Shown here: in pieces, positions 4,824-64,000 of the stretch
How positions within the stretch are numbered: position 1 is the first letter of the stretch
Layout of the letters: each line of letters opens with the position of its first letter
Source of the DNA: Mobula hypostoma
Lineage: Eukaryota
Direction of reading: 5' to 3'
DNA: 64,000 bases
Assembly (NCBI RefSeq): GCF_963921235.1
Contig: NC_086108.1
Location: 25,048,001-25,112,000 of the forward strand
Notes under the pieces: model-generated
What the model was told of the DNA's origin: nothing
What the model saw: only the letters and a program-made list of their open reading frames with translations
The model's database searches: none
Made by a program: the position numbers and the translations under genes

Positions 4824-5159
4824 TACTGTCTTCCGGATGAGGACACTGAGGGTGGCCTGGCTTTTTTGGGGATGATCTAGAGCAACTTGAGCTAGTTGGC
4901 TGCCGTCATCAGCAAGCTTGAGTGATAAGAATGGATGTAGACATGTGTCAGAAAGCATGCTGCATTGGATTCAAGATTACTTGTGAACGGATGTCATGAT
5001 CTAAGAAGTATATGTAGTTGAGAATGTTATGATACTGAAGCATCTTCCTATACTGCACAGAACATCTTACTATAACACTTTACTTTGGGCATTGACATTT
5101 GATCTTCTGTGTTTCCACTGCCTTCTGAATATATATCTAAGTAACATTCTGCTGCATAT

Positions 5160-5345
5160 TCAGAAAGTCTCAGCAGGTCAGGCAGCATTTTTGGAAAGGA
5201 ATAAAAAATCAATGTATCAGGATAAGACCCTTCCAGAATGTTGACTCTTGATTTCTCTCCATAGCTGCTGCCCGACGTGCTGAATCCCTCCAGCATTTTC
5301 TGTGTGTTGCTCAAGATCTCCAGCTTTTGCAGAATCTCTTCTGTT
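5160..5345. repeat. Degenerate inverted Penelope-type terminal repeat pair
   Basis: CAGCAGGTCAGGCAGCAT... is inverted against ...GCTGCCCGACGTGCTG...CAGCATTTTCTGTGTGTTGC. Same family as 52626-52862. Confidence 0.65.
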
Positions 5346-6619
5346 CAGAAGCTCCCCACATCTCTTCATCTTGCTAGTATGTATGCATGGTATCCCTGAG
5401 AATGTAGAGTATTTGGTGAGTCATAAGATTTGTTAAAACATTTGCATCTGGTTTATTCAATCAACTAACTGCATTTGCATGTGCATCAGTATCATACATA
5501 TACATTATACGTTAATGTATGACTCTGTTTTCTCCTTTTTGAAAAAGAAGACTGACTCATATGTGTAAATCAACTGCAGATTTAACCTCTTCACAGCTTC
5601 TTAGAGGATCTTTGAGCTTTTCAAGGGAGATATGTTGTGATATCTATTTCTTGAGTTGAGGAAGGCACTCCAATATCCCATGTCAGAACGTCAGACTTAC
5701 AAGATGATGTTAGCACATACAGTATACTCCTTCAAGTTATTTGAATTGGTTCTCTCTGGTTCTTGATTCATTACTTTGATTCTTTCTTAACTCTCTCTCT
5801 TCCGCTCTCTCCTCAAGGCTTGTCTAAATGAATATCAGTCGCACACGTCTTCGATGTATAACTAATTCAGTAGGAGTATTACTTGCTGTGGAATATGGCA
5901 TAGTTAAATAAGTTTTCTACCAAGCACCCTTATAATTTGTCTACCTTCAGAACCTCTTAGACAATTCTAACTCAACACTGTACCATTTAAGACGGGGGAG
6001 AAAGTGAAAAGTAAGGGTGTGCATGATATTATTTTGTTTCTTGAAGTGCTCAGGTAGAAATGATCAGATCTGAGAACTATTATCTAAGACTAGTTCTTTT
6101 GGTAAGCTCTCATATGAGAAAAGTGATTCTTCTTTTGACAGTACTACCTCGGTATGTTGGCAGGACCCAATATACATCATCTCAATCATTCTGAATAATT
6201 ACCTATCACTCAGTTTCTCATGTTAATCAACATATATTAATTGGACACCCTTCCATGGTCGTTTCAAACTGCTATTGCTGTCCTTACAGGGTTTGATCTG
6301 GATTCGCAGCAGACAGTTTTATCTAAGCCCAGCCACCGAACTTAATGCCTGGCAATTGCATTCATCTACACTGTATCAGAAAGTTCTGGCTGAAGGTCTA
6401 CCAAAATGTCTCTACTCAACACATAAGGTATCATAACTCTATTTTCATTCCTAATACAGACTTCTCCCATTGACTTCCATTGCTGCTTATGCTGCAGCCT
6501 TTTCAAATATTCTTGCATTAGCATAATATCTTAACCATATCTTCATTATTGAATTCAGAAAATCATCCTACTATTTTTGACGTGAAGGCAATGATGTCAC
6601 CATTCTGTCTGAATTTCTA

Positions 6620-7914: not shown

Positions 7915-10683
7915 GTGTAAACTCGATAACACATCTGCAACAGTATTTTATTTTGAACTTGTATTGCAATCATATTGAAATAAGTGTCCATTTTTGCACT
8001 TTTGATGCAGCTGTTGTTGGTATTGCTGGATTAGAACCAAGAACATCTAACAAGGTTTATTGTCTGTAATCGAATAGTGACATTTGCCAAATTATCAAAA
8101 CCTTATTAATTTATAACAATTTCTCAATTTGAGCATACATTTTGACAATGTATGCAATGCCAACACCTTGTTGGCCATCATTATTACATGACTTCCAACT
8201 GCTCAGTAATTCAATGCTTCATGTGCAAATATCTGTAACATTTATTCACTCCAGCACGAGTGATCATGTGCTGAGACTGATGCTTTCCACTGGCGATATT
8301 CAACCTCTGTTCATTGACTATGAACTGACACTGTATTTGTATGCTGCTTTGGACAAAATACATTTACGTTTCTCAATGCCATTTCCACATGTCACAATTT
8401 TGCAACTGAGCTCAAATGTGAGGTTCTAATGTTAATAACGTGACCAATTCTGCTGATTGATTGAAGCACAAATGAATTTATCATACAGTGCATCGGTTAC
8501 GATGCCAAGGTTGCAGCACAGAGATGGGTCTTTTAACTTGGCATCCCAGTCATTGTCAAGTCTTGCTGACTCCTGGCTCCTAATTCCAAACGAGTTCTAG
8601 TTCCTAGTTTCAAAACTCTCCCTGACAGTTTAGAATTTAAATTATCCTGCAACTTTTGTGTAACTTCGCTAATCAAATCAGCTGTTTCCCATGGCATTCA
8701 ATATATTCAATTGTGCAAGTCATTTCAGGTAAGAGAATATGTTTTTTTTTGCACTCCTCTGTGGCACCATTTTATGCAGATAATTTGCTGCAGAAGAAAA
8801 AACTTCTTTGATGGACTGAAAAACTCACATATGAAAGCCTCCAATGTAACCTGCTGTGTCTTACTGGTGACAAAGTGTCTCCACAATGACAATTACGCAT
8901 TCTGCTATTTCTTACAGTACCTTTTATCCAATTACTGTTGTTTCAGGCAGTGCAATGCTTACTATAGACTTTAACTAGTCCAGGTTATGGGCTTTCAGAT
9001 TCACTCACACTTGTCAATGGACATGGAGACTATGTTATTTTGTTGATTCTCTATGTTCATCATCAATTTGTTTTTGAGCGTACATACGTTCCTTCCTCCT
9101 GACCTGGACAATGCAGTGTTTATTGATAAACACAAGGAGACACAGAGAACAGGTGGAATCTGTGTTTTCAGTTAACCACGTGCAATGTGCAAATGATATA
9201 TTCAGCTAATTACCAAGAACATCCAAACAATCTGTATCATACATATTGCTGTAAGACAACTTCACCTACAAGATCTTACATATTGTATGAGGAGAAAACT
9301 GAAGCAATCTCAGATTGGCCTTTGCTCCAACTAACAGAGTCCAGATTGCCTTCCTGTAACCACAAAGTTACCTCCCCTTTAAGAAGTGCAAGGTGCCTTT
9401 AAGCAGCTGTTTGTGACATTGATGTCTTTGCTGGTGCACACTATCTGGGTAGTGTTGGCTGTACGCAGCAATGGTGTGAAACAGCAAGAAGCCCCAATTT
9501 AACATACTGCCGGCAGTGTAATGATCAGGCCAAGTTTGGCTGCACACTGCAATCCTTCACTTTGCTTATATTATACACAACCTTACAACAGGCAAAAGAA
9601 AAAAACAATCAAATTTTCAGTTGAAAACCCAGGTCATAGAAGCAAAATGATGAATGCTGTACCTTAGTCTCCTGATAATTCTGTGAATATTACTGTACTA
9701 ATGTTGTTGAAAAGATAACTGATGGTAATTCAGAACCTGTGTGACCCAGATACCTGACAACTTTCAGCTTTTTCTTGGCTCTTCACAGATTGATTACCTC
9801 TTTGCTATGCCTGTGTATGTACAGCAGTAAATCAAAAAATTCTCAAGTCACTTTTCTTTCTGGCAAGATAAATTTTTTGTCCTTGGCATGGGAAAGCATG
9901 TAAGATGGCTGGGAAAACATCAGGTGTTCAATTTAGATGATGCACAATCAAATCGGAAAAAAATCAGAGGGTTTTGAGCACGAAAGGGTTCAGATAACAA
10001 GAATGGGAAACTGACCAACAGCACATGAAGTTCCTGATCAGTTGACGTACAATGAGTTCTGCAAAACCGTAATTAAGTCTGAAAAAAAATGAAAACTGCA
10101 ACTGCAGTTCCCAAAGGATTTGCATCGTTAGTCTAAGAAGTTGTCGTCGATATAACCACAAGATAAATTATTTATTTCTCTGCATGTTTAATACACTGGT
10201 GCTGTCAACACATATTCCACTTAGGAATTTATAAAAAAAATACAAAGAAAATGCTACCATAAAGGTTTTCCTTGAGGACAGCCTGATCGCATGGCAAGTG
10301 GGTACTGTGCAGGATATCCCATATCAATTCCCATATTGAGGGATTCCTCTACATGGGGTGATGCTGAAAGGAGTGAAAATGCGCATGAAGTAACACCCAC
10401 TGTAACTGAAGCGAGGATTTCTGAGCACAGAAGGACTTCCATTCGTTATTATAGTACCCATGATAATGCAAATCACTACTGTATTTGGTGTAGTGCAGAT
10501 AAAGCAGAGTTAATTTGGGATTTACTTCATCCACAGATGTAGCCTACATGATTAACAGTGAAGGATAGTTGACATAAAAGAGAAATATATGTTGCCCCAG
10601 GCTAACATGACATTTCAGAATCTTTAGGAATTTTCTGTCTCCCAGACAAATTGGATAACTATATAGCTTTTCTTATTTATATA

Positions 10684-19099: not shown

Positions 19100-19400
19100 T
19101 TGGTTCCATGCTCCATCTTCCTTTCCTGTCAAGTTCCATAATTTCAGCCTTCAATTATGACCTCCCAGCCTCTGTCACTATTTCCACTCTTCTCTCTTCT
19201 ATCTATCACCCCATCTTACCTAGATCCACCTCTCACTTGCTAACCCTTGTTCCACCCCCTTCCTCTCACCTCTTTATACTGGTTATTTCTCATCTGTCAG
19301 CCCAGATGAAAAGCCTCAACCTGAATCACCAACTATCTAATTCCTTCCACAGATGCTGTCTGAATCCTGAGTTCTTCCAGCAGTTTGCTGTTTTTTCTTT
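19100..19400 (+). mobile_element. Degenerate Penelope-type 3' end
   Basis: A pyrimidine-rich tract, a decayed hammerhead-like segment (CAGATGAAAAGCCTCAACCTGAA) and CACAGATGCTGTCTGA..CTGAGTTCTTCCAGCA. Confidence 0.55.
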
Positions 19401-20318: not shown

Positions 20319-21208
20319 TGTGACGAAAGAGGGTTACAAAAGTACACATAGACTAAGATGTTAACTGTCCTGTGCTAGCACCAGTGGGATCAACAGTTCA
20401 TCTGCCACCTGTCTTCAGGAGAGAGAGATAAGTAAGACAATGGAGCAGCATTTGGAAATGTTAATGAAGAGACGAGAGAGTTTAACGGAAGGAGACACCG
20501 GTCTGAGTATTGTCAAGACCGGCTCCTTTTGAACCCTGAACTGTTTGAAGTGTGATGGACAGGCGATACCCCAGCAGGGGGATAAAAAGGGGCAGGTTCA
20601 CTGAGACACCACACACGACACCATGAGGTAACGAGACCCTGGAAGCGGTGCGCCCCCACAAGTCGGTGGGAGTTTTGGAGGGCTGGCCGTGGTACCAGCC
20701 ATAGACGCACAGGGTGGAAAGATTCGGTCGGCGGGAACCTGGTGTGTGTGTCCACCCTCGCCTGGGTGCCGGGTTCACCGCAGAGGAACGATCGTATCTG
20801 AAAACGGAGGGGTCACAGTCGGTGACCTCAGAAGACATTACAAAGGGCTCGCCCGAAAGCTAACTGCGAGGAATATCAAAGGTCTGTTGAATCCGATTTG
20901 AATATCAGCATTCGCTCTCTCTCTCCCCCAACGGCACGACGGCTATTACTGCAAACTGAACTAAACTGAACTCTGTCACTTGTGATTGAACATTTTACCC
21001 CTAGACTGCGATAGAGCTGATTGACCCTATTATCCTAGTTCTGTGTACATGTGTTTATTCATTGCTAACCTGTTGCATTTATATCCTTACTATTAGAGTA
21101 CTGTGTTGCTTATTTCTTTAATAAAACTTTCTTAGTTCCAGTAATTCAGACTCCAACTGAGTGGTCCATTTCTGCTGGTTTGGCAACCCAGTTACGGGGT
21201 ACGTAACA
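20319..21208 (+). repeat. 5' LTR (890 bp)
   Basis: TGTGAC...GTAACA. Direct repeat of 24377-25272. AATAAA at about 21120. Confidence 0.97.
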
Positions 21209-21212
21209 TAAG

Positions 21213-21227
21213 TGGGGTTCTCGTCCG
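21213..21227 (+). promoter_or_regulatory. Primer binding site, tRNA-Pro-like (imperfect)
   Basis: TGGGGTTCTCGTCCG lies 4 nt after the 5' LTR, versus the canonical Pro PBS TGGGGGCTCGTCCG. Confidence 0.7.
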
Positions 21228-21307
21228 CAATTTTGAATGCTAAATTTGGGATGGGGTAGATTGATTGGGTTAAAATTCCCGAAAGAAAGAAAAGGCAAAC
21301 AGCAGAA

Positions 21308-23074
21308 ATGGAGATTGAGGAATTTCTAAAGGCGCCGACCTTGGAGGCATTAGAGGATGCCAGGAAAGCGGAATTGGCAGCTGTGGCCAAACGGTTGAAT
21401 CTTGTTAAGGGTAAGTTGACAATGAGGAGAGAGGAGATACACAGAGCTATCGTAGAGCACTATGTATCTAAAGGTGTGTTTCCCCAAGGGGAGCTGGAGG
21501 TGATATCTATTGGGAAACCTGCTGGAGATGCAGCACAGGTGCAGCTTGAAAAACTGAGACTCAAGCACGAGTTCCAGGTACGGCAGCTAGAACACAAAGA
21601 GAAGCAGTTAGAACGGCAGGAGAAAGAGAAACAGTTAGAATGGTAAGAGAGAGAGAGGGACAAACAGTTGGAGTGAGAAGAGAAACAGAGGGAAAGGGAA
21701 TTCGAGCTGGAGAGGTTAAAGTTGATGGCAGAGCAGGGGCCCATGCCGAACCAAGCTGGAGGGTTCAGGGCGACCCAGGAGGTTAGGCTGGTTCCCCCAT
21801 TTGACGATACCGATGTGGATCGGTACTTTCTCCATTTCGAAAAAGTTGCTGCAAGTCAGGACTGGCCGAGGGATAAGTGGGCTGTTTTGCTTCAGAGTGT
21901 ACTTAAAGGGAAAGCCCAACAAGCTTACTCGGCTTTGTCTGCGGAAGATGCCCAGAGGTATGAGGTGGTGAAAGAGGCCATCCTTAGGATTTATGAGTTG
22001 GTCCCGGAGGCATACCGGCGGAGGTTCCGGAATGCCAGGAAGCAGTGGGACCGCACGTATTTAGAGTTTGCCTGTGAGATGCAGACATATTGTGAGCGTT
22101 GGTGCGCCTCGAAAGGGGTAGATGGGGATTATGACAGACTGCTACAGCTGATCCTGATTGAGCAGTTTAAAGGTTGTGTCCCTGAAGGTATGAGACTCTA
22201 CCTAGATGAGAAAGAGGCAGCCACGTTAGCCGCAACTGCTAAGTTAGCGGATGAGTACGCGTTGACGCATAAAATGAAGTTTGCCCCGAGTAAAGGCTAC
22301 CAGAAGGGTAGTCAGGACGATGGGGAGAGTCCGCCGGAAAAGTCAGAAAGTAAGCTGGGGACTAGTGAGAAGAATAAGGTAGACCGGGAGCAGTCTGGTA
22401 GGAAGTCTCCTGGGGTCGTGTGTTATAATTGTGGGAAAGCTGGACACTTTGCATCCAGGTGCTTTGCCCCAAAGAAGGAGACGGGAAAAGGAAAAACGGC
22501 GATTTCGACTGGCTGTATTGAGCTGGTAAACAAACCGCTAGGAGAGGAAAGGTCTGCCAAAGTTCAGGAAGGGCGCGAGAGGTTTATCTCAGCCGGATTG
22601 GTGTCGGCAAAGGAGGGGTTAAACCCAGTTCCAGTGCGGATCTGGAGAGACACGGGAGCATGTCAGTCATTGATATTGAAGAGTGTGTTAGAGTTTAGTT
22701 CAGAGACCCAGACTGGGGAGGTCAGGGTCAAAGGTATTGGGGAAGGGACAGAAGCAGGCCCTTTACACCAGATACACCTACAAAGCAACTTGGTCTCTGG
22801 ACTAGTCACGATCGGGGTGAGGCCCGAATTACCGATGAAAGGCGTGGAAGTCTTGCTCGGTAATGACCTCGCCGGGGGAATTGTATTCTTGGCAGTGAGA
22901 TTGACAGGTCAGCCTGCCAGCATTGAGGCCCTGCCCATGGACTCACAGGTTCATCCTGTTTGCACAGTGACTCGCTGTATGTCCAGAGACACTGCTGAGA
23001 CGTTTCTACCAGCCTTGTACGAGGAGGGAGTAGAAAGCGTAATGAAACAGGAGGAAGTGGGGAAATTAAGGTAG
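21308..23074 (+). pseudogene. gag: Gypsy gag-protease (capsid/SCAN-like domain, CCHC knuckle, aspartic protease)
   Basis: One frame broken by two stops (TAA 21644, TGA 21674). Motifs: VPPFDD..VD.YF.HFEKVA, ILRIYELVPEAYRRRFR, LILIEQF, CYNCGKAGHFASRC, WRDTGACQS. Confidence 0.9.
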
Positions 23075-24259
23075 ATTTATCATTAGAAAAGAAGGACTTC
23101 ATACAGGCACAGGAGCGAGACGAGGAAACAGCTCTCTCTGAAGCAGGATTAAAAAGAGAGCCAGTAGGCTATTGTGTGGAGGAGGGTGTGCTAAGGAAGA
23201 AAGGGAGACCAAGTACCGTACCCGCAGATAAGGAATGGGGGATGGTGCCAAAAATTTATAGGGATGAGATTCTTAACCTGGCCCACAAGATACCCCTCGG
23301 TGGACATTTTGGGGGGAGGGAAACAGTCGGCGGAATCATGAAAGAGTTTTACTGGCTGCACAGGAGGAAGGATGTTATTGACTATTGCAGACATGAGTTA
23401 ACACAGTTAGAGGCTATTAACATGTTAAAAGCCCACCACGGTCAGAGAACAGATCTAGCTGGTGATATCATGAAAATTAATGAGGCTAAGGTGCCACCTG
23501 ATAAGGGGAGGACCCATTTTGAAAAGATAGGTGTGGTGCCGACCAGATGGGAGATGTCTATTGTGTTGACCCGTTTTGCTGATAAAGTCTCCCCCTTAAT
23601 CCCCGAACAAAGCGACCCTTTAGGAGAGCTAATTAAATGGCTCGCACACGTGTGTTTGATTGTCCCGAGGCGATGCAAAGAACTGGGACGTTGGATGGTG
23701 TTTGTCACGTTAGGTCAGCCTAGTGAGCAACACTCCTATAGAATGAGTAATTTTGTGACGAAAGGGCTAAAGAACACAGAAGTGTATATTGGCGATGTAA
23801 TACGGCTGTCTGAAGCCAGCTTGATAGTGAACCTTGAAAAAAATGAGTTCGGCCATGCGAAGGTCACTTATCTGGGAATTGTGGTAACACAGGGGCAGCT
23901 GGCAGCAATGCAAGCTAAGGTGCGGGCTATTTCTGACATCCCAACCCCGACAGACAAGAGGGCCCTCAGAAGGCTCTTGGAGGTGGTGGGGTACTGTAGG
24001 AAGTTTTGCAATAACTTTGCGGGTACTACCCCTCCCCCTCCTACTAAGCCCTTGCGAAAGAAAACTAAGTCGGGATGGGACGACCCTTGTTATCGTGGTC
24101 CGGGACGAAACCCAATGAGAGGTTACACTGATCACAATTCATCAGTGTTTTTGGCCACTATGAAGTTTGCTAAGTTGGAGCCTGGTTTAGAGGATTATTA
24201 AAATAACACGTAAAAAAGGGACAGAAAATGTGATTGCTGACTGTCTGTCAAGGTGTTGA
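23071..24259 (+). pseudogene. pol: Deleted pol mosaic (integrase H2C2, RT and RNase H remnants)
   Basis: LAHKIPLGGHFG...FYW..RKDVIDYCR, then VYIGDVI (decayed YIDD), VNLEKNEFGHAKVTYLG, YTDHN and, in another frame, GTENVIADCLSR. Confidence 0.85.
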
Positions 24260-24364
24260 CAACTTAAAATTCTCTGTATTAGCCAAATAGCTGATGAAGA
24301 TGTATATTTGTGTGTATCTAATAATATATTCATGCTTATAATTTTTACCCCGGTAAAAATCCTT

Positions 24365-24376
24365 AAAGGGGAGGGG
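24365..24376 (+). promoter_or_regulatory. Polypurine tract
   Basis: AAAGGGGAGGGG immediately before the 3' LTR. Confidence 0.92.
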
Positions 24377-25272
24377 TGTGACAAAAGTGGGTTACAAAAG
24401 TACACATAGACTAAGATGTTAACTGTCCTGTGCTAGCACCAGTGGGATCAACAGTTGATCTGCCACCTGTCTTCAGGAGAGAGAGAGATAAGTAAGACAA
24501 TGGAGCAGCATTTGGAAATGTTAATGAAGAGACGAGAGAGTTTAACGGAAGGAGACACCGGTCTGAGTATTGTCAAGACCGGCTCCTTTTGAACCCTGAA
24601 CTGTTTGAAGTGTGATGGACAGGCGATACCCCAGCAGGGGGCTAAAAAGGGGCAGGTTTGCTGAGACACCACACACGACACCACGAGGTAACGAGACCCT
24701 GGAAGCGGTGCGCCCCCACAAGTCGGTGGGAGTTTTGGAGGGCTGGTCGTGGGACCAGCCATAGACGCACAGGGTGGAAAGATACGGTTGGCGGGAACCT
24801 GGTGTGTGTGTCCACCCTTGCCTGGGTGCCAGGTTCACCGCAGAGGAATGATCATATCTGAAACGGAGGGGTCACAGTCGGTGACTTCAGAAGACATTAC
24901 AAAGGGCTCGCCCGAAAGCTAACTGCGAGGAATATCAAAGGTCTGTTGAATCTGATTTGAATATCAGCATTCGCTCTCTCTCTCTCTCCCCAATGGCACG
25001 ACGGCTATTACTGCGAACTGAACTAAACTGAACTCTGTCACTTGTGATTGAACATTTTACCCCTAGACTGCGATAGAGCTGATTGACCCTATTATCCTAG
25101 TTCTGTGTACATGTGTGTTTATTCATTGCTAACCTGTTGCATTTATATCCTTAGTATTAGAGTACTGTGTTGCTTATTTCTTTAATAAAACTTTCTTAGT
25201 TCCAGTAATCCAGACTCCAACTGAGTGGTCCATTTCTGCTGGTTTGGCAACCCAGTTACGGGGTACGTAACA
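24377..25272 (+). repeat. 3' LTR (896 bp)
   Basis: Direct repeat of the 5' LTR with about two dozen differences counted by eye. Confidence 0.97.
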
Positions 25273-40249: not shown

Positions 40250-40508
40250 ATGGTCATTTCTTGTACTTTCAGACATATTGAACAATATATCAAAAGTTGG
40301 ACTGAAACAAGTGCATGAAAAAGTAAAAAAATCTGGCGTTAAAAAATGGCCGCCAATGAAAAGAATCGGACCCACATCTTTCTTATTTTGCTATATTTCA
40401 CTGTTTCTAACAATGGTAGTGCCATAATTGTGGTATAAAATGTGAATGGGAGTACCCGCAGGGTGTGTTTTATTGCCAGAACTATGAACTATTATTTCAT
40501 GATGTCAT

Positions 40509-42345
40509 GTGATGACACATGCATTGGAGGATGACAATCCTGAGGTTCATCAGAAATTCCAGTCTGGGTTCCATGTAATCAGACGCAGCAGCCAATACTG
40601 GGTTGGCCTTGGCTCTGATCTTGTGATAGAGCAGACACTAATGCGCTCACTAAAAAGCCAAGGGGCCCTAACGCGAGGAAGTGGGATGTCAGAGCACCAG
40701 ACAGCAGCTTGGACTATGTCTTCCACTGTGTCATTCTCTTACAACCTTGCCATGCAAGAACTGACTGCAAATAGTTACACAACAGGTGAACAACATAAGG
40801 AGTTGTCCACCTCTGGAGTGAGTAGAGATGAGACTGACCCTGAAAAAGTCACAGCAAAACTGGACTGTTTCACGTCATTTGCAGATGATAAATCATTGCG
40901 CAACATCATCACAGGGGTTTATGCAAATGAGGATGTCAATGTACATGACCTGTTCGCAATAGGAAATGACATAGTTGGGAAGATGGATGGACACTCTGTT
41001 TTCTCATATTCGCACAAAAGGAGTATGAAGGTCAAAACACTAGCATCCAGCAGGGCAGTCAAAATTGCTGAAGACCATACCATAGATCCAGCGTTATTAT
41101 TCCAGAGGTTCCTAGTTGTTTCACAGACAGGTGATCTCTGGCTAGACGAAGTGATGAACTATGAACTCTGTCCATATCCGATGTCTTTGTTTGAAGCAAA
41201 GAACATCTTGCACCAGCCGGATAAGCCACAACTGGCAAAAGCAATAAAGAACTATGTCACTTCCAGACAATGTTGTCACACAGAGAGTCCCAGTGACAGA
41301 TCACTATGTTCGAGATGTGGGGGGGGTGTCACTTCTGCTCCGCTTAAAATGGACAGAGGGGTGCACCTACAATTCAGTTGCAGATGACCACGTCTCATTC
41401 ATTGTCAAGCACTATGCCAGAGCTACTGTAGAGTTTGATGGTTATGGGGTTGGGCCAAGCATAAAGGACTGTACTCATCAGCATCGAAGTAGAAATTTGA
41501 ATGCAAACAAGGTGAACATTACAGGGGTGACAAAATTTGTTGGAAAAAGGAGGACTTCTTGTCGAATGAGGCAAACAAGCAGGTAATTATCCAGCTTATC
41601 ATGGAATGTTTGCGACAGAGAAGCTGCGAAGTGATTCAAGCTGAAGGAGTGCCGACATTGAGGTCACAATGTCTGCTTTCAAATCTACCACCCTCGTTGG
41701 AAAAGACACAGATCTTCTCGTACTCTTGCTGTACCATGCAGTGGTAACAAACTGCACTGAACTCTATTTCCGCTCGGACAAGGTGAAATCAAATGCCTAT
41801 AATATCAAGTCCTTAAGCAGATACTCAGAGAAGCAGCTTATAATGATCTATTGTTTCTCCATGCCTTAACCAGTTGCAACTCAATGTCCAGAGTATTTGG
41901 GATCAGAAAGAAGTCGGGGTTTCAAAGAATCATCAAGAAAGAAAAGGGAATCAGAGACTGTTTGAAAGCGTTCTGCTCACCAAAATAAAGTCAGGTTGTT
42001 GTGGAAACCAATGGCTGCAGGGCAATGGTGGTGTCATTCAATGGAAATCAGAACGACTCCCTGGCATCTATCAGATACAATATGCTCCGCAAGAAAGTTG
42101 CGAGATCTAAGACTCTCATCACGCCTGAAAGACTGCCACCAACCACCTCGGCCTGTAAATTTTACTCACTGTGGACTTACTACCAGGTAATGGAGTGGAT
42201 GGGCCGTAGTGATGAAATGGAGCCGGCTAAGTGGGGATGGAGGGTAGAAGGAGAAAAACTCATTCCAGTGATGACAGATAAAAGGCCTGCTCCAGAGGTA
42301 CGTATTCAGATGATTCACTGCAACTGTTCAGGAGGGTGCAATACG
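40509..42345 (+). pseudogene. Academ-type protein, frameshifted; N-terminus deleted; last codons at 49409-49537
   Basis: Chain of ORFs 40509-41387, 41254-41586, 41559-41747, 41669-41869 and 42001-42345. IHCNCSGGCNT joins to LKCT.RKHGLKCT.ECGQC across the Rex insertion. Confidence 0.8.
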
Positions 42346-48954: not shown

Positions 48955-49923
48955 CTGTAGCGCCTACCGGATGGGAGGAGAGTAAAAATTGGGTGGGATA
49001 ATCCGATTATTCCACCCAATTGCTGACCATTGAGAACATCTACCATAAACACTGCCTGGGCAGGGTGAAAATTATTATCAAGGATGCATCTCACCCTAAC
49101 CATGCACTTCTTACTCTCCTCCCATCCTGTAGGCGCTACAGGAGCTTCCGCTCCAAAAACCAGCAGGCACAGGAAGAGCTTCTTCCCTGAGGCTGTGACC
49201 CTGCTGAACCTCACATCACAGCACTTAGTAGTATTGCACCCATATTGTACTGTCTCACTACTTTTATATTTGTGTGTTGTAACACTTACTTTTTATTCGC
49301 AGTTATTTTGTAAATAATACTATTCTTTGCATTTCTGGTTAGATGCTAACTGCATTTCATTGGCTTTGTATCTGTACTCGGTGCAATGACAATAAAGTTG
49401 AATCTAATCTAAAGTGTACCCGCAGAAAGCATGGGCTGAAATGCACCTGTGAATGTGGGCAATGCCAAGGTGGCAACTATGACAATATGGCAAATGAGCC
49501 AGTGATAAAAGAGGATGATGAGCAAGACTGCATCTGAGAAGCCATAAGGTCGCATATTATGTGTCATGATGTCAGTACTTAATACCAGAGTTGTCCCTTG
49601 ATTGCGTCATTGATGACGTCATGATGTCAGTACAAATGCAACTTTCATTCCAGGAAGTACTGTTATTTGAAAAACATTGGTGAAAAGAGCATACATTAAA
49701 ACATCAAGTTTAAAAAACTTGCAATTTAATGGTTATCAGTCGGAATTTTGACATTTTTCTGCTGGTGGCCATCTTGTTTGTTGATGTCATTTTTGGAGAT
49801 TTTCCTGTGTGTCAAAATTGTCCAACTTTTGCTATGTTATTCTTCACATCGAATAATACAATAAATGATCATAAAACTTTTTTTGCAATTTTTTTGAGGT
49901 TAGGTGGTATATTGACCCGCCTA

Positions 49924-50122
49924 GGCATCTGTGGAGGCCAGGTCATTGGTGTATTTAAGGTAGAGCTTGATAGGTTCTTGATTGGACATGACATCAAATG
50001 TTAGGGGGAGAAGGCTGGGGAGTGGGGCTGAGGAGAGGAAGAAAAGGGTCAGCCATAATTGAATGGCAGAGCAGACTTGATAGGCCATATGGCTTAATTC
50101 TGCTCCTATGTCTTATGGTCTT
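49924..50122 (+). mobile_element. CR1 3' end (probable continuation of 39590-40249)
   Basis: GVFKVELDRFL and a TCTTATGG tail, in the same orientation as the endonuclease piece. Confidence 0.8.
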
Positions 50123-52625
50123 AAGATAATCATATTATTTTATATTCTTATGTTTCCACATTGCATGTCTGAATGGTTCCAAAGCTTAATTGGCATTTAA
50201 GCACAGAATAACTTACATCTGCACCCTGACCTAATGGGTCTTAAAACTTCTCACTGTACATCCAGAGAGAATGTTTCATTATCATCGCCTGTTGCTTCCT
50301 TTCTTGGCCTACTCCATTTATTGTGGTTCTGCCTGCAACATGCCTAGATTGTATATTATGCAGAACAGTGTAGAGAACCCAGAGGCCTTCAGAAGCACGA
50401 CAAAGGCCTCCTGAGCAATGCAGCTTCAGAATCACACTCTCCACAATACTTATAGTAACCCTGTAGCATAGGCTGTATTTATGATCTTCAGTGAAATTAG
50501 TATTCTGAATGATGCCAAGAAGCAAAGGTGAAATGGATAGCCTTCATCAACTGGATGTCTCTGTGACCAGTGCATTGAGCAAAATAAAGTGACATGTTAA
50601 ACTGCCTCAGAATGAGCCATGTAAAATCCCAGATGCAAGACATTGACTGGTGGTGGTTACAGATTTAAAGGAATCATGCCTCAGCTACCTGTTGTTTTAA
50701 GCAAAAGCTTGACAAGGCTTCATCTCTGAAATGGAACAAAATGACCAAAGTTATGGTAGCTTTACACTCTATATCTGGGCTGCAGAGCTGTACTCCAATG
50801 GCCTCTTCAGCAAACCTACTAGTGATTGATGATCATACCAAGTGGAGGAATTGTAAGACTGGTCACTGCTATTCAGACTTGATATGTTAAACGTGGTCCA
50901 CAGTAAGTGGAAATTTCATATGTTTGAATACATTACGCAGAGGAACCACCAGCTATGCACAATGGTTGATATTCCTGTATGTTCTTTGTGCACAGTTTAC
51001 ACATGAGACAGTGTGTTTCAAAGGTATCATAATGCAGAAAACTAAGGTATTGATGTTACACTACAATGCAATCCTACAGCATTTACATGGTGTCTGTTTT
51101 CCAAAGGAATTTTCAGGCCTAATTTTCTGTCCACTTGCTTATGGAATTTGCAAGGTGGAAAATGCTGGCTCCTGCCCGAATTATAATGCAGTACATTTTC
51201 CTCCAGTGTCTGTTTCTTTTATTTTTCTGCTTGGTTGAATTCATGCTGCAATCTAATGAATATTTCCTTGTGATGTAACTTTCTTTAACTAGCCTGGCAT
51301 ATCAGGAAATGTAATTTCTGTGTTTTTATTATATACAAGAATATGTGCCACTAAATAAATTACAAGGAAACAGTTCAAACTAATGGCTAAATTGATAGAT
51401 ATTTAAGGTTTCACTTTCTGGTTTTACACTGTCCATAACACATTCATTTAATAAGGTTTAAAATGACTATTATAATCAAAAAATCTAGACTGCAAAGCCA
51501 TTTCTCCATTTATATTGAGGTCTCTAACCCACTTACATAACGCACATTGAAAAATATCAATTGCACTGGTGTATGTGTTTTTAAATGCTCAGGCATTGAT
51601 CTCATGTGAAATACTGATCAGCAGTAGCAGCTGGGAACTAATCGTGCTCATTGTATGATGCACTGTACAGTGGTACTGGAATGTTTGGGAATCCTTCAGG
51701 ATTTTCTCTATTCCTGCACAAGTATGACCTAATGTAATCAGATCTTCACAAAAGTCCTAAAACCAGATGAAAAGAAAAACATTATACTTGTTCATTTATT
51801 TATTGAGAAAAATGATCCAATGTATTTCCATGTACATCCATGTATTTGATGGAAAAATATGTGAACCTCTGGGGTAATGCCTTCTACAAAAGCTATTTGG
51901 AGTCAGGTGTTCCAATCAATGAGATGAGGTTGGAGGTGAGTGTTATAGAGGTACCCTGGCCTATAAAAAAGACGCACAAATTCAGGCGACTGACAGAGCC
52001 TGCACTTCTCAAGAAAGGTCTGTTTATGTGCACCATGTCTCAATCAAAACAACTTTCAGAGGACCTTAGAAGATGAATCGTAGAGATGCATGAAGCTGAA
52101 AAAGGCTACAACAGCATTTCTAAAGACCTGAGTGTTCATAAGTCCACCATAAGAGAAATTGTCTACAATTGTCTACAATTGTCTCAGTACTTTTGCTACT
52201 CTCCCTAGGAGTGGACATCTTGCAAAAATCACACTAAGAGCACAACATGCAATGCTGAAGCAGGTGAAAATGAACTCAAGAGTAACAGCAAAAGACATGC
52301 AGACATCTCTAGAACTTTCAAAAGTCTCTGTTATGTGTCCACTGTAAGATAAAAACTGAACAAGAATGGTGTTCATGGAAGGACACCATGGAGGAAACCA
52401 CTACTCTCCAAAACAAAAGATTGCTGCACGCGTCAAGTTTACAAAAGACCACCTGGATGTTCCACAATGCTTCTGGGACAATATTCTGTGGACAGATAAG
52501 AAAATGACTGAACATTTTTGGCAGAAATTCACATTGCTATATTTGCAGGAAAAAGGGCACTGCACACCAACACCAAAACCTCATCCCAACCGTGAAGCAT
52601 GGTGGAAGGAGCATCATGGTTTGGG

Positions 52626-52862
52626 CAACACACATCAAAGTTTCTGGTGAACGCAGCAGGCCAGGCAGCATCTCTAGGAAGAGGTACAGTCGACGTTTCA
52701 GGCCGAGACCCTTTGTCAGGACACAGAGAGTCCTGACGAGGGGGTCTCGGCCTGAAACGTCGACTGTACCTCTTCCTAGAGATGCTGCCTGGCCTGCTGC
52801 GTTCACCAGCAACTTTGATGTGTGTTGCTTGAATTTCCAGCATCTGCAGAATTCTTGTTGTT
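52626..52862. mobile_element. Palindromic Penelope-type terminal repeat insertion
   Basis: About 98-bp inverted arms (52625-52722 and 52730-52828). 10-bp TSD ATGGTTTGGG (52616-25 and 52863-72). Confidence 0.88.
52729..52765 (+). ncRNA. Minimal type I hammerhead ribozyme motif
   Basis: AGTC-CTGACGA-GGG(GGTCTCGG)CCT-GAAA-CGTC^GACT: core boxes CUGANGA and GAAA, stem I AGTC/GACT, palindromic stem III ACGT, predicted cleavage after 52761. Confidence 0.75.
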
Positions 52863-53199
52863 ATGGTTTGGGGCTGCTTTGCTGCCTCAGGGCCTGGACA
52901 GCTTGCAACCATTAAGGGAGCAATGAATTCAAAATTGTATCAAGACATTTTACAGAAGAATGTCAGGGTAGCAGTCAGTCTCCTGAAGCTTAATAGAAGT
53001 TGGATAATGCAACAGAACAATGATCCGAAAGGCAAGAGCAAATCAACAACAGAATGGTTTAAAAAGAAGAAAATTTGTGTTTTGGAATGGCCGAGTCTAA
53101 GTCCTGATTTTAATCCTATAGAAATCTTGTGGAAGGACCTGAACCAAGTAGTTCATGCAAGTAAGCTCCCCAACATCCCAAATTGAAGTAGTTTTGTGA

Positions 53200-53695
53200 G
53201 GCAGAGGGTGGAACCGGCTGGGCCTGATTGCAACATTTCAGAGAAATTCTGATAACTACATGGAGGGGGTTGAGTAATGAGGGCTATGGTCTAGGTAGAT
53301 AGGACTAGTTCTGCCAAAGGGCATTTCTCTCTGCTGTAGGAGTCCATGACTCTATGACACTTTCTCTGGCAGCTGGTTCCATGTACCCACCCCATTTTGA
53401 ACAGCCTGCATTCAGATTCCCTTTAAATCTTTCCCTGCTTATCTTAAAATGTTCACCCCTTGTTTTAGACTCTCCCATCCTTGGAAGAAGACTTAGATTT
53501 TCTACCCTATATATGCTTTAATAATTTTATAAACCTGTATTTGGTCAGCCCTCAGCCTCTTTCATTCGAGGGAAACCATCTCAGCTTACCCAGCCTCTCC
53601 TTATAACATTGGCCCTCTAGTCTAGGCATCATTTCTTTAAATGTTAACTGTACCCCACTCTAGCTTCACCACATTCTTCCTATACCATGGGTTGG
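53200..53695. mobile_element. Old CR1 3' fragments in opposite orientations
   Basis: A plus-strand tail (CATGACTCTATGAC) followed by a minus-strand decayed ORF2 end. Confidence 0.55.
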
Positions 53696-54261
53696 ACCAC
53701 CCGGAGACTGTGCATGATTGTGTTTGCAGAAGTGACTAGCACACAGATGCTATGGAGACTAAGTCCCCTCTAAACACTGAGGATACCTTTCATCATTCTG
53801 AGCAGAGCTCTGCAGACGTGGTCAGAACAGACCTGGAAATTCAAATCAGGACATCCATGAGGCACTGTGATCCATTAGCAGCAGCTGTAGAAATGTCCAT
53901 CAGCTCTCTCTTCACATTATCGTGATGTGACTGACATTTCCCATTGCCATAAATATAGGTAAACCAGTTGCTAGTAGATCAGGCACTGCTATCACAAAAG
54001 GTTTGTACAATATCTTACGTTGGCTCTGTGTCCATTTCCTGACTAAATGCAGATTCAAAAAGTCCATTTAAGATCTCCTCCATGTCTTCTGACTCCATGC
54101 ATGGATGACCACAATGATCTGCCAGTGGATCAATTTTGTCCTTTGCTGTAACTTAATATATCTGTAGAAGGCCTTGGGATTCCCTTTCACTTCATCTGCC
54201 TGAGTAACCACATACTACCTTTATCCCTCCTGATTTATTTCTGAAGTATTATCTTGCATTT

Positions 54262-54355
54262 CTGATGAAGGGTTTCGGCCCAAAACATCAACTGTACTTT
54301 TTTCCATAGATGCTGCCTGGCCTGCTGAGTTCCTTTAGCATTTTGTGTGTGTTAC
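54262..54355 (+). repeat. Penelope-type terminal repeat with a decayed hammerhead
   Basis: CTGATGAAGGGTTTCGGCCCAAAACATCAACTG...GATGCTGCCTGGCCTGCTGAGTTCC, inside a minus-strand CR1 remnant. CTTGCATTTCT occurs on both sides as a probable TSD. Confidence 0.75.
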
Positions 54356-54959
54356 TCTTGCATTTCTTATATTTCTCGAGCTCCTCATTTGTTCCTTGCT
54401 GCCTATACCTGCTATTCACCTTCTTCTTCTTCTAACCATGGCTTAACCCTCAAAAATTAAGGTTCAACCTTGGGAAACCCTAAACCAGTATTTTATTTTT
54501 AAATTTTTAAAAATTTTTTAAAAAAGAATGCATTATTTATTTATTTTTAAATCCGGTATCACACACTCTCGAGTTGGTATCTCTATATATTAAGGAAACT
54601 TTCCTGAACACAGTTGATAGACTCTCCCATCTAGTCCTTTTGCAGTTAGGAGATAAGTGATAACAAGTCTGGCTGAGCCTTGAGAGTCATGGCTGCCTGA
54701 CTGGGAATGCAGCAGGTAACATCAACCAAACCAAGGGATAAATATAGTTGTTAGCATCCTCACCAAACTATCTGTGAGACTCATGAAGTTATACTACATT
54801 GTAGCAGCCCAATAGTCCAACTTGTCCATGCTGACTGAGATGCCTGTCCACACTAATCCCTTTTGCTCAGGTTTGGCTAATATCTCACTAAACTTTTTCT
54901 ATTCAAGTACCTGTCCAGATATCTTTTAAATGTGGTTGTACCTCTCTGCCATAATGTGT

Positions 54960-55960
54960 AATGGGTGTTGGGTGCTAGGTTAAAGGAAAGGATCTCCAAG
55001 GTGGTGACCTCAGGATTACTACCTGTGCCTCATTCTATTGAGGTCAGAAATAGGAAAATGATCATTTTATCATGTAGATAAGGAGAAGGTGCAGGGGAGA
55101 GAGCTCCAGATTTTTGGATCACTGTGTTCTCTTCCAGAAAAGGTAGGACTTGTACAAATGGCATAGTTTACACCTGAATTGGAGTGGAAGCGTTACTCTT
55201 ACAAGAAAGTTTGCTGGTGCTGCTCCAGGGATTTTAAACTAGAGATGCAGGGTAATGGGAATTAGAATACCAGGCTAGCTATTAGAGCGTTTGTGGAGAA
55301 AGTTGAAATACAAAGACGGACACTGAAAGATTGAGCATGGCAAGACTAATGCTTTGAATTGAATCTGTTTCAATGCAAGGGGTATTGTTGGTAAGGCATG
55401 AGGAACTATGATATTGTAGCCATTAGTGAAACTTGGTTACCGGAGGGGCAGGACTGGCAGCTCATTGTTCCAGGGTTCTGTTGTTCACGACCTAATAGAG
55501 GGGATGGTATTAAATGGGGAGTGTGGCATTACTAGTCAGGGAAAATGTCAAGGCAGTGCTCAGGCAGGACAGACTGGAGGACTTGTCTACTGAAGCCATA
55601 TCAGGGGAACTGAGGAATAACTAACCACACTAATGGGATTATATTATAGACCACCAAAAATTCTGTGGAATTTAGAAAAGCAAATTTGTAGAGAGATCAT
55701 AGACTGCTGCAAGAAACATAAGGTTGTGATAGTGGGTGATTTTAACTCCACATATTGACTGGAAATCCTACACTATAAAAGGGCTAGATCAGACAGAGAT
55801 CGTCAAATGTGTCAGAAAAGTTTCTAATGTCCATGTTAATGGGATCATTATATAGACCTTCCATTAGTCAGCAAGATTTCGAGGAGCTAATTTGTAGTAA
55901 GATAGCAAACAGCTACAAGATAAACAAGCTTGTAATAGTAGGTAATTTTAACTTTCCACT
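54960..55960 (+). mobile_element. Old CR1 5'/endonuclease region
   Basis: FNARGI, DIVAISETWL, YYRPP and VGDFN remnants. The YYRP..GNFN block recurs at about 55835-55960. Confidence 0.75.
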
Positions 55961-56195
55961 GATTGGTTGCTTCAGTCATTAACTATTGTATACCCAGTCT
56001 GGTAGCCATGAACCTCAAAGCTCAGCCAGACTGGTCATCAGTGGGGACATCAAACTGATCTTGGTGATGGACATTAAAGACCCCAACTAGGGTATATTCT
56101 GTGTCCTTCCAACTGTCATTCAACATGGGGAAGCCTGGATCCATCAGCTAGGAGAGGTATAAAAGTGTTTTATGTGGTCTGGAGTCAACATTATA

Positions 56196-56268
56196 CGGTA
56201 CTGTGCAAAAATCTTCAGTCCATATATATGAATATAGCTAGGGTACCTTAGACTTTTGTATAGCACTG
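56196..56268. mobile_element. TIR-only Tc1-like mini element
   Basis: TA|CGGTACTGTGCAAAAATCTT...AGACTTTTGTATAGCACTG|TA. Confidence 0.7.
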
Positions 56269-56600
56269 TAGGCTGTGTTTTATATCATTTCTTGTGTGGG
56301 TTAATTTTGATTTGACTTGAATGAGAGGGCCGGGGATTGTTACGTGTAGAGGGTGGTTGATTGTTATCGTGGCTGTTTTTGCTGCTGGCGAGGGTGATAT
56401 TTTGGGGTCTACAAGTTTTGTTTCTTTTCTTTTTTAGACAAATATCAAAGTTGTATCATACAAATGTACTCTGACAACAAAACCCTTTTGAAGTACACGG
56501 TGGAAAGACATCCATCTGCATCCACTCTTTATTTGCCCTTGAAACAGCAATATCTATGAGACTTAAGTATTCGTTATTATTGGTAAACATTTTGTAAATA

Positions 56601-56663
56601 CAGTACTGTGCAAATGTTTAAGGCACCCTAGCTCTATACATATGCCTAAGCCTTTTAGTACTG
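56601..56663. mobile_element. TIR-only Tc1-like mini element
   Basis: TA|CAGTACTGTGCAAATGTTTAAGGCAC...TGCCTAAGCCTTTTAGTACTG|TA. Confidence 0.7.
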
Positions 56664-58699: not shown

Positions 58700-59545
58700 A
58701 GCTCTGACATAAGATCTTCAATCTAAAACTGATTTTCTCTTGCCATAGATGCTGCCCGAACTGTTGAGTGTTTCTGCATTTTCTGTTTTAATTTCACCCT
58801 GCGATGCACTGTGCTTGGAGTAGACCCAGAAGTTCTCTGCTCAGTTTAGAACGGGACTGGGAAGATAAACAACTGCAGATGCAGGAAATGTAGAATTAAA
58901 CAAAAATAAATTGCTGAAGATGCTCAGCAGGTCAGGCAGTGCCTGTGAAGAGAGAAAAAGAGTTAACTTTTCAAACTGGTGACATTTCATCAGAGGAAGG
59001 ACTCATGGTTCATGAGAGCAGGCATTCAGATTTTCTGATGCAGGAGTGAAATGAGGAGTGATGCTCTTCATTCCATGCAGGCAGATAGAAAGTGGGGGAC
59101 AGTGGTGAAGGATGGGGGTCAGTGGTGTTGAGAGGCCCTTCAGTAAAAAGCCATGATCTCCAAGGACCAATAGGAATTCATTGACCTTATCCAAAATGCC
59201 AAGATTAAGGAATGCTTTTTTTTCAAATTCAATGCCCAGGATGATCTATGTAGCTCAGGGTCCACTCGATTCACCATACCCTAAAAATTCACCAATCACA
59301 ACTTGATTTCACACTCGCTGGTACTGCTGATGCAGATATCTTGGAGAATAATATAGCATCAAATTCTGTGAGTTTCCAGAAGTTGGAGCAAGGTGGCATG
59401 CTGGAAATCTGTATCAAAAGGCTGGAGGAACTGTGAAGGTCAGAACAGATGAATGGGTCTTGGCCTGAAATGATGATAGTTTTCCTCCACAGATGTTATC
59501 TGACTTGCTGAGTTCCTCCAACCTTCTGTGTGTGTGTTACTCAAG
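58700..59545. repeat. Cluster of decayed Penelope-type terminal repeats
   Basis: Copies at about 58700-58800 (+), 58870-59000 (-) and 59395-59545 (inverted pair). Confidence 0.55.
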
Positions 59546-60679
59546 GTAGCAATAAGAGTGGTTGTGCTGGCTCTACTGGGGAAGCTCGACTGCAGAGGAC
59601 AGAGGATCTGATTAGGTTAGACTTCATAAAAAGCTGAAAGGAATGCACAGAGAAATACTTGGTGCAACAGGAATAGACAAAAATAGGAATAGGCTATTCA
59701 TGCCTCTGCTACCATTCAATAACATCATGGCTGACCTCATACCTCATTTCCTAGGTTAATCCCATACCTGAAGCCTATAACACTACACTCCTTGGAAAGA
59801 GATAGGTTAATGTTACACCCAAAGGCCATCCATCAAGATCTGCAGTGCCACACATTTGCACTTGGTTCTATTCCAGCATTCAAATGCACATCTCATACTT
59901 CATACACCTCTCCAACTGTTCAGCTGGGGCTACCATATCAGACACACCTTCACTGACACTCACCTTCTGCCCCCACAGCAGAAAGTTGCTGACATTGGTA
60001 GACCATTTGACTATGCAGGAGACTGGAGTGCCCTAACTTGCCGATAGGCTCAAGTGTTTGGAAGAGAGGGTGCTGGCAATCACAGTGCAACTTACAAATA
60101 TTTTCTTAAGAGTCAGCTTTATTTTCTTAGAGCCAGAATTATTTTCTTACAGCCAGCTTTGAAAACAAAAAAAAATCTGTGATATATGTCTTCTACTAAC
60201 ATTCTATTCTCTGTTTCCCCTTATCAATTTCTCCCTCTTTGAAATGAATGACCCTGCCAGTTTTGCACAATACCCAATCAGTCACCTCATGAGCACAAGT
60301 GGTCATGGTCCCTCAAACGGCAATGCGTAAACTTCACCTGATACCTGGGACAATTCCGTGCCATGAAAATTGTAAATGATAAGTGTCACAGGCTGGGTTG
60401 TTGGAATCAAGAGGAATCCTTAAATTGGGGTCCAACATTGAATATTCTCTGTAATTACTTCCCCAGAGAGATCACTTCTTGTAAGAAGTGCACCTCTGGT
60501 AAAAACAATTACAGTCTTTCATTTAAGATACTTTCATGACAGGAAGGAAAGGGTGTATTTCTTGTTGCACTTTTTCTATCTGTCCATGTCTATTGTTCTT
60601 ACTTGACCTGAAACAGCAGTACCATTGCTGTGACTGGCAAAATTTGCAAATCATATAGTATCCTTAGCATAATATAGAC

Positions 60680-62907: not shown

Positions 62908-64000
62908 TGACAATACCTGTTACAAATGAGGTCCAAAGCTCTAGTAATGGGAATCCAAATACCAAAATATCCAGAATTTATCTGATTTGATGACTCCACT
63001 CTGAAATCTATTAAAATCTCAAAGAAAAAACTGACATCATTTGCTTTTCCATTTGAGTGACAGTTAATTATTTCTTTATTGAATTAGAAGTTAGCTTTAC
63101 AAGCTTCATGGCAATATCTACCTATCTCGCAGAGTAATGATAAAACACAAAAAGCACTGAGTCAAAAAGGCAGTAACTGACCAATTCCTGCTTTGGCCCC
63201 TTTCCTGTTTAGTGAGATTTCTCCTAATTTGTAATCCAACTCCACATTACAACGTTTTTCATAGAGCTTTCCTTCTTAAATATCTGTCAGCTTCAGGTTC
63301 AAGATTAACCCCTAACTGATATCAACTGAGGCACCTAAAGACATGGAGAAAATGAGGGGGAATCTGGAAAAAAAGTTCAGTGTAAATGTACAGCACCATC
63401 CACTGAACATGTGAATGAGGTAACAATTTTCACTCAGAGGCTTGTAGGTCTTTGAAGCTCTTCCCCAAAGGATGATGGACGAAGTACCTTTGAATATTCT
63501 TAAATCAAAATTAGATAGATTCTCATTAAGCATGGAGAGGTGATAGGTAACCTGTGATTAAAAAAAAAGGATGCAGAGTTGTGTCTACAGTCAGATCAGT
63601 CAAGATCTTATTGATTGAAAGAGTAGGCTTAAAGGGAAGAGTGAGCAACCTGCTTTTCACTCATATGCACCTGCTATTTGTGTTAAAGAATTTGAAACAC
63701 CCTTAACCCTGTACGTACAAGCATCTCTTAATTTCACTTCTAACTCTGAAATTATGATTCTTACCCTAAGACATCCAAATAGTAGAAATATTGGAAATTA
63801 AATTAGTAAACAAGCATTAGGCTGGAAACCTAAAATAAAAACATGAAAGACTAGAATGAAGTTCTGACAAAGCGTCTTCTACCTGCAACAGGAACACCGT
63901 CATTCCCTTTGATGTTCTCTGACTGCTAAGTATTTCTAGTATTATGGATAAATATATACAAAAGATTCTGCAGGTGCTGGAAATGAAGCCCAACATATAC

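Follow-up and report, generated by a model that had tools for sequence, protein, structure and literature searches.

Introduction

The closest described systems to the locus studied here are the insertions left by Penelope-like retrotransposons and the minimal hammerhead motifs found in their terminal repeats. For such insertions, Arkhipova et al. (2013; PMC3846280) describe an inverted pLTR, a target-site duplication (TSD) of 9-10 bp and a tail of 31 bp confined to one of the repeats; head-to-head junctions are explained there as the product of self-priming. Craig et al. (2021; PMC8557442) present an inverted 5'-truncated copy with a one-sided tail of 30-40 bp as typical and name the origin of this arrangement as unsolved. 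Biochemical work on the anole element PAc, carried out in vitro, reports that the protein cuts and extends both strands, that the tail corresponds to the interval between two internal start sites of reverse transcription, and that uncleaved RNA is the main template; the PAc hammerhead is reported to cleave only in the presence of the protein, and the substitution G8C kills cleavage (Frangieh et al., 2024; PMC11167929).

The ribozyme motifs themselves are treated in PMC4209133, where the consensus of the minimal hammerhead (min-HHR) includes a highly conserved G10.1-C11.1 pair, metazoan members are described as lacking activity in monomeric form and cleaving weakly in dimeric form, and pairs of motifs on opposite strands, 100-700 bp apart, are noted. 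The position of the motif relative to the transcript is documented for the Penelope element of D. virilis, whose intron starts 46 bp after the transcription start (PMC2377424) and ends at helix I (PMC4209133).

We analysed a short inverted-repeat insert within 64,000 nucleotides of Mobula hypostoma DNA (contig NC_086108.1, positions 25,048,001 to 25,112,000), a stretch referred to below as the window. The insert is likely the remnant of one insertion, dead on arrival, by a Penelope-like retrotransposon that is very abundant in rays; in this stump, two short hammerhead-bearing ends stand head-to-head and one of them carries a tail.

Insertion site and anatomy of the insert

The insert measures 237 nt (52626-52862) and lies between two copies of a 10-bp TSD, ATGGTTTGGG, at 52616-52625 and 52863-52872. 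Repeat comparison finds the two copies identical at 10/10 positions, a level that none of 3000 randomly drawn pairs of ends reached when a shift of +/-6 nt was allowed for each. The host is a decayed Tc1/mariner transposase copy on the + strand (approximately 51900-53190), which is old, with numerous stops and frameshifts and many differences from the family majority. Its half downstream of the insert matches Pfam DDE_3 (E 4e-9), and excision in silico of the insert together with one TSD renders the transposase frame KHGGRSIMVWGCFAASGPG intact again. When contigs from four public sequencing runs were aligned to 52300-53200, the joint 52615>52863 (a skip of 247 with 10 shared letters) appeared in all four, in 26, 29, 20 and 13 contigs respectively; these probably derive from other Tc1 copies rather than from a proven empty allele at this locus. 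Among the contig pieces listed from the four runs, none spans the insert. The duplication, the restored frame and the empty-site joints together uphold the sequence-only reading of this DNA where it had seen a 237-bp insert with a clean TSD splitting a Tc1 gene.

Arm alignment and core comparison place on the left an inverted arm of 97 nt (52626-52722, - strand), a 5'-truncated repeat end without a tail whose hammerhead motif carries G8A and has C3 at 52719. A spacer of 7 nt follows (52723-52729; arm alignment, fold and, at 52723, contig alignment), which forms the hairpin loop and whose right part may represent family sequence from just 5' of helix I that has diverged. The direct arm of 98 nt (52730-52827, + strand; arm alignment and nhmmer) is likewise a 5'-truncated repeat end, and it is continued by an extension of 34-35 nt (52828-52862, + strand, starting at 52828 or 52829). 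This extension has no counterpart on the left arm, and many family contigs stop at 52829; it matches the Penelope 'tail' as described in PMC8557442, PMC3846280 and PMC11167929.

The two arms face each other head-to-head and differ by three substitutions and one indel, in agreement with the near-perfect inverted arms of about 98 bp reported earlier, and the predicted RNA fold of the insert reaches -204 kcal/mol (z -26). The insert is nevertheless not the pure palindrome it had been taken for, since it ends in a one-sided tail, which had been overlooked. MITEs and foldback DNA transposons are defined by inverted repeats at both termini; here the right end is an unpaired tail. The ends of the insert show neither poly(A) nor a simple repeat.

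A T at position 11.1 is common to both arms, while of the nine remaining arm CpGs eight are preserved, which fits copying from one template; with a single template, the four arm differences would have arisen after insertion. The arms also contain sequence 5' of the predicted ribozyme cut site, which indicates that the template RNA was uncleaved.

The hammerhead motif

A minimal type I hammerhead motif is located at 52729-52765 on the + strand (relaxed scan, folding, core comparison and PMC4209133), with a helix I of 4 bp, the core CTGACGA/GAAA and a loopless palindromic helix III (ACGT). Its elements read AGTC-CTGACGA...GAAA-CG-TC^GACT, so that AGTC and GACT form helix I and the predicted cut falls after 52761. 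It is the sole full match in a relaxed minimal-hammerhead scan of both strands of the 64-kb window (128 kb in total). A hammerhead profile search, the check put forward with the sequence-only reading, gave it no support: Rfam returned no hammerhead family at E<=10 for 50000-56000, just generic hairpin matches below the gathering score.

Compared with the min-HHR definition, the + arm has all the core residues (C3-A9, G12-A15.1, U16.1-H17), and the - arm reads CTGACAA, that is G8A, the one core change that had been claimed. The palindromic 15.2-16.2 step without loop 3 is present as ACGT, and helix I comprises 4 bp on the + arm and 3 bp on the - arm. The conserved G10.1-C11.1 pair is absent: in both arms the pair closing helix II is G·U, and the C is kept in only one of the seven window copies examined. 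The + arm further departs from its family by an additional G and an A>G change ahead of helix II, where aligned contigs show A at 52740 in about half of the depth, along with deletions of 1-2 bases, and where the PDEG frame of two predicted Mobula proteins (P0002 and P0003) also gives the family state. The earlier description of a complete + core thus stands for the core residues, but not for the approach to helix II, with its extra G and A>G, nor for the closing pair. The G·U in place of G10.1-C11.1 marks the motif as a decayed descendant of a min-HHR, not an intact member of the class. Comparison of helices I and II across the seven window copies involved five that are old and mostly broken in helix I, a set too small and too decayed for covariation.

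Other copies in the window

A search of the window with nhmmer found five further pieces of the repeat at E<0.01; another old copy lies near 19300. An older fold-back of the same family occupies 59389-59551, with a TSD of 9/10, a different centre and its tail on the left arm (nhmmer, folding and a null comparison, the left arm being read by eye); the null for a TSD of at least 9/10 is 0.7%. Another fold-back, older and more decayed, lies at approximately 5159-5350 (nhmmer, repeat comparison and null), with a third centre and a doubtful 7-nt TSD. The three palindromes of the window therefore have three different centres, which suggests that the fold-back is probably made anew at each insertion, a claim that rests on two old copies, 70-76% identical, with one left arm read by eye. 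The older palindromic copies have decayed with no visible restraint.

Older single-arm copies, 70-85% identical, are present at 54262-54366 (+), 58873-58993 (-), 58737-58777 (+), 63963-63988 (-) and about 19150-19400 (+). The copy at 19 kb is preceded by a stretch of 76% pyrimidine, which is probably more of the parent element. Inverted repeats of other kinds also occur in the window: 45-nt repeats 328 nt apart at 56226-56643, one end reading TACAGT (possibly a MITE), and a 42-nt repeat, 88% complementary with 103 nt between its halves, at 48955-49141, bordering an L1-like reverse transcriptase (RT) frame.

Abundance of the family and search for a parent ORF

The parent repeat is a very large family. 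Runs from three organisms yielded 78,807 (X1), 62,225 (X5) and 20,508 (X9) aligned contigs, and summed contig depth rises to about 1e7 over the arm as against about 1e5 over the Tc1 flank, values that do not amount to a copy number. Many family contigs end at 52829 with unrelated continuations, at the point where the left arm ends, while others traverse the extension; in X1, 168 contigs end there with no common continuation (agreement 0.38). Contigs that leave at 52854 or 52862 share a short common continuation (agreement 0.44-0.57), so that 52862 may not be the exact start site of the family.

Protein searches with the arm translation returned just four host gene models containing exonised pieces of the repeat, all of them RefSeq-type predictions from Mobula (P0001-P0004: CoA synthase, STARD3NL isoform X3, RNF180 isoform X2 and one uncharacterised), which places the family in rays. 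In P0002 and P0003 the repeat ends at the 52829 point, P0001 continues into the tail, and two of the Mobula models join the repeat at one point just before the hammerhead core (V-S-P-D-E-G). Outside these models, exact-pattern scans of metagenome and viral contigs gave no match; a shorter pattern gave 32, 8 and 1 matches, and of these loci 40 were compared with the unit by nhmmer, with no match. We found no published description of the ray family in a search to which subscription journals, Repbase/Dfam and supplements were external, and it may well be catalogued in those places.

Pfam families of the GIY-YIG type matched none of the 146 window ORFs of at least 80 aa and none of 60 short ORFs beside the old copies. 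The RT matches of the window sit in other elements, far from any copy of the repeat, and are read as LINE-type. An ORF at 10276-10539 with a motif resembling GIY-YIG was dropped, as Pfam gave no match for it. Among the coding remnants of the window, an LTR element at 20319-25272 has repeats of about 890 bp, 97% identical, with SCAN, zinc-knuckle and integrase zinc-binding matches and no RT match among the scanned ORFs, and appears inserted into a LINE; a 294-aa open frame with neighbouring frames at 40503-41744, with no Pfam match, may be an unclassified transposon remnant.

Origin of the insert

The insert combines a head-to-head inverted, 5'-truncated copy, a one-sided tail of 34-35 nt, a 10-bp TSD and a hammerhead in the terminal repeat, the set of features expected of a Penelope-like insertion. 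We had as a starting point the proposal that a Penelope element supplied the machinery for a non-coding insertion bearing a minimal type I hammerhead. This proposal fits every structural feature tested, although the searches of window ORFs and proteins tied no Penelope ORF to the family. What did not survive is the notion of a designed mini-element, as the inverted arm is a published by-product of Penelope insertion. The locus is likely to be an ordinary one, a Penelope stump in an old DNA transposon. Counted against this reading are the missing ORF link, some contig depth over the spacer that might point to shared centres, the uncertain position of the far start site and the dependence of the variable centres on two old copies.

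By analogy with PAc, a GIY-YIG nuclease encoded by the element would cut the two strands about 10 nt apart. Of the resulting 3' ends, one would prime cDNA synthesis from the far start site, giving an arm with the tail, and the other would prime from the near start site, giving an arm without it. Both cDNAs would copy uncleaved RNA as far as the point where the hammerhead begins on its 5' side, and would be joined there; alternatively, fold-back of a single cDNA would yield an identical product. Since its insertion the copy has picked up private mutations.

The palindrome might instead be mobile in itself, as a non-autonomous mini-element copied whole by Penelope proteins, with many copies sharing this centre. 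Its clean TSD and young age (four arm differences) would suit such an element, putative non-autonomous derivatives of Penelope-like elements are mentioned in PMC8557442, and contigs do cover the spacer, with a summed depth of about 1400 in X1 (at 52727) and 1200 in X5, which could represent more copies with this centre. That depth is, however, about 1000-fold below the arm depth, family sequence can be aligned into the spacer with two mismatches, and the two older palindromes have other centres. A perfect duplex of 97 bp is, moreover, a poor template for reverse transcription. We regard independent mobility as improbable.

The sequence-only reading had proposed a conditional self-cleaving or dsRNA module, for which the intact + core residues could be cited, as could the right arm, which taken alone needs only about 8 kcal/mol to expose helices I and II. 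In the full insert, the ribozyme fold can be imposed only at a penalty of 60.5 (+) or 57.7 (-) kcal/mol, the pair probability of stem I in read-through RNA is about 1e-39, and prefix folds show that the hairpin has already formed by the time the whole core has been made. With the arms head-to-head, the antisense arm is made first on either strand and pairs with the ribozyme strand during its synthesis, so that the ribozyme is always the second, 3' half of the hairpin; given the small cost for the right arm alone, only a transcript starting within the 7-nt loop would be free. The hammerhead is thus predicted by folding models to be a passenger, locked in a hairpin of roughly -200 kcal/mol in read-through RNA. 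Long dsRNA, the remaining point in favour of a module, would by the same models form if the locus were transcribed, as with any inverted repeat. Further against it, the - core has G8A, where G8C abolishes cleavage of the PAc hammerhead (PMC11167929), the normally conserved 10.1-11.1 pair is G·U, and single min-HHRs of metazoans show no activity according to PMC4209133, their dimers only a weak one. The insert carries private mutations, the host Tc1 is dead and older copies decay freely, and we consequently see very little chance that the insert acts as such a module.

A SINE-like origin of the repeat, or one as the end of a LINE-dependent element, with an incidental hammerhead look-alike, would agree with the lack of a Penelope ORF among window ORFs and protein matches, of an Rfam hammerhead in 50000-56000 and of demonstrable covariation in the seven window copies, yet we give it hardly any credence, as the four hallmarks of Penelope insertions are found jointly, no second full match to the motif turned up in the 128 kb scanned over both strands and neither a poly(A) nor a simple-repeat terminus is present.

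Inner ends and wider meaning

The three palindromes of the window have six arms between them; not one extends past helix I, and four stop within about 6 nt of it. Two Mobula gene models enter the repeat at this point too, and helix I is also where the intron of the D. virilis Penelope ends. Family sequence just upstream of helix I, given by the loose-end consensus of X1 and X15 at 52722 on the other strand, consists of pyrimidines plus AG, a possible splice acceptor (52720-52730 in the window), with an agreement of only 0.38-0.45.

We tentatively raise the idea, in which our confidence is low, that stumps of this kind preserve, on the scale of the genome, traces of the process by which inverted repeats of Penelope elements arise: their outer ends would mark the two RT start sites, and their inner ends would show that the template RNA has a fixed 5' limit where helix I begins. 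The two start sites would be used one from each end of the staggered cut, and the fixed boundary would be either the transcript start or a splice acceptor. If this were true, it would address the origin of the inverted repeat, named as unsolved in PMC8557442. The single locus matters little, being one of very many stumps; as a class, stumps add long hairpins to ray genomes and become exonised in predicted genes, as in the four Mobula models. The one lead worth keeping is that inner ends cluster at helix I, and a genome-wide stump tally could put to the test how inverted repeats and tails come about in Penelope elements.

Comparison with known systems

Non-LTR retrozymes (Li et al., bioRxiv 10.64898/2026.07.22.740005) resemble the insert in being non-coding and in carrying a type I hammerhead; they are proposed in that preprint to derive from Penelope-like elements and are reported there in one chondrichthyan. 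They are described as head-to-tail tandems, whereas the insert is one head-to-head pair with a TSD; a search nearby for a direct unit repeat, as in a retrozyme of at least two head-to-tail hammerhead units, found none.

The metazoan min-HHRs of PMC4209133 share with the insert the type I topology, the short helix I, the palindromic 15.2-16.2 without loop 3 and an extra nucleotide after A9, and the occurrence of motif pairs on opposite strands close together is common to both. The insert differs from them in the G·U at 10.1-11.1 of both arms, in G8A on the - arm, in the extra G on the + arm and in its helix II of 3-4 bp.

The unit of EN+ Penelope elements such as Pen2a_Av, as described, has the same head-to-head truncated repeat, one-sided tail (31 bp, against 34-35 here), TSD of 8-10 bp and hammerhead in the repeat. 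Unlike in that unit, the direct part of the insert is the repeat end alone, with neither an ORF nor a second repeat, and the whole is a hairpin of 237 nt.

With regard to Poseidon PAc of Anolis carolinensis, the reported ORF starts inside helix II, whereas the ATG frame of the insert stops at 52829-31, and PAc is reported to prefer AT-rich ATT cuts, whereas the target of the insert is not AT-rich. As in PAc, a tail lies between two end points in the insert, the hammerhead is situated some 100-130 nt upstream of these points, and it was copied in the uncleaved state.
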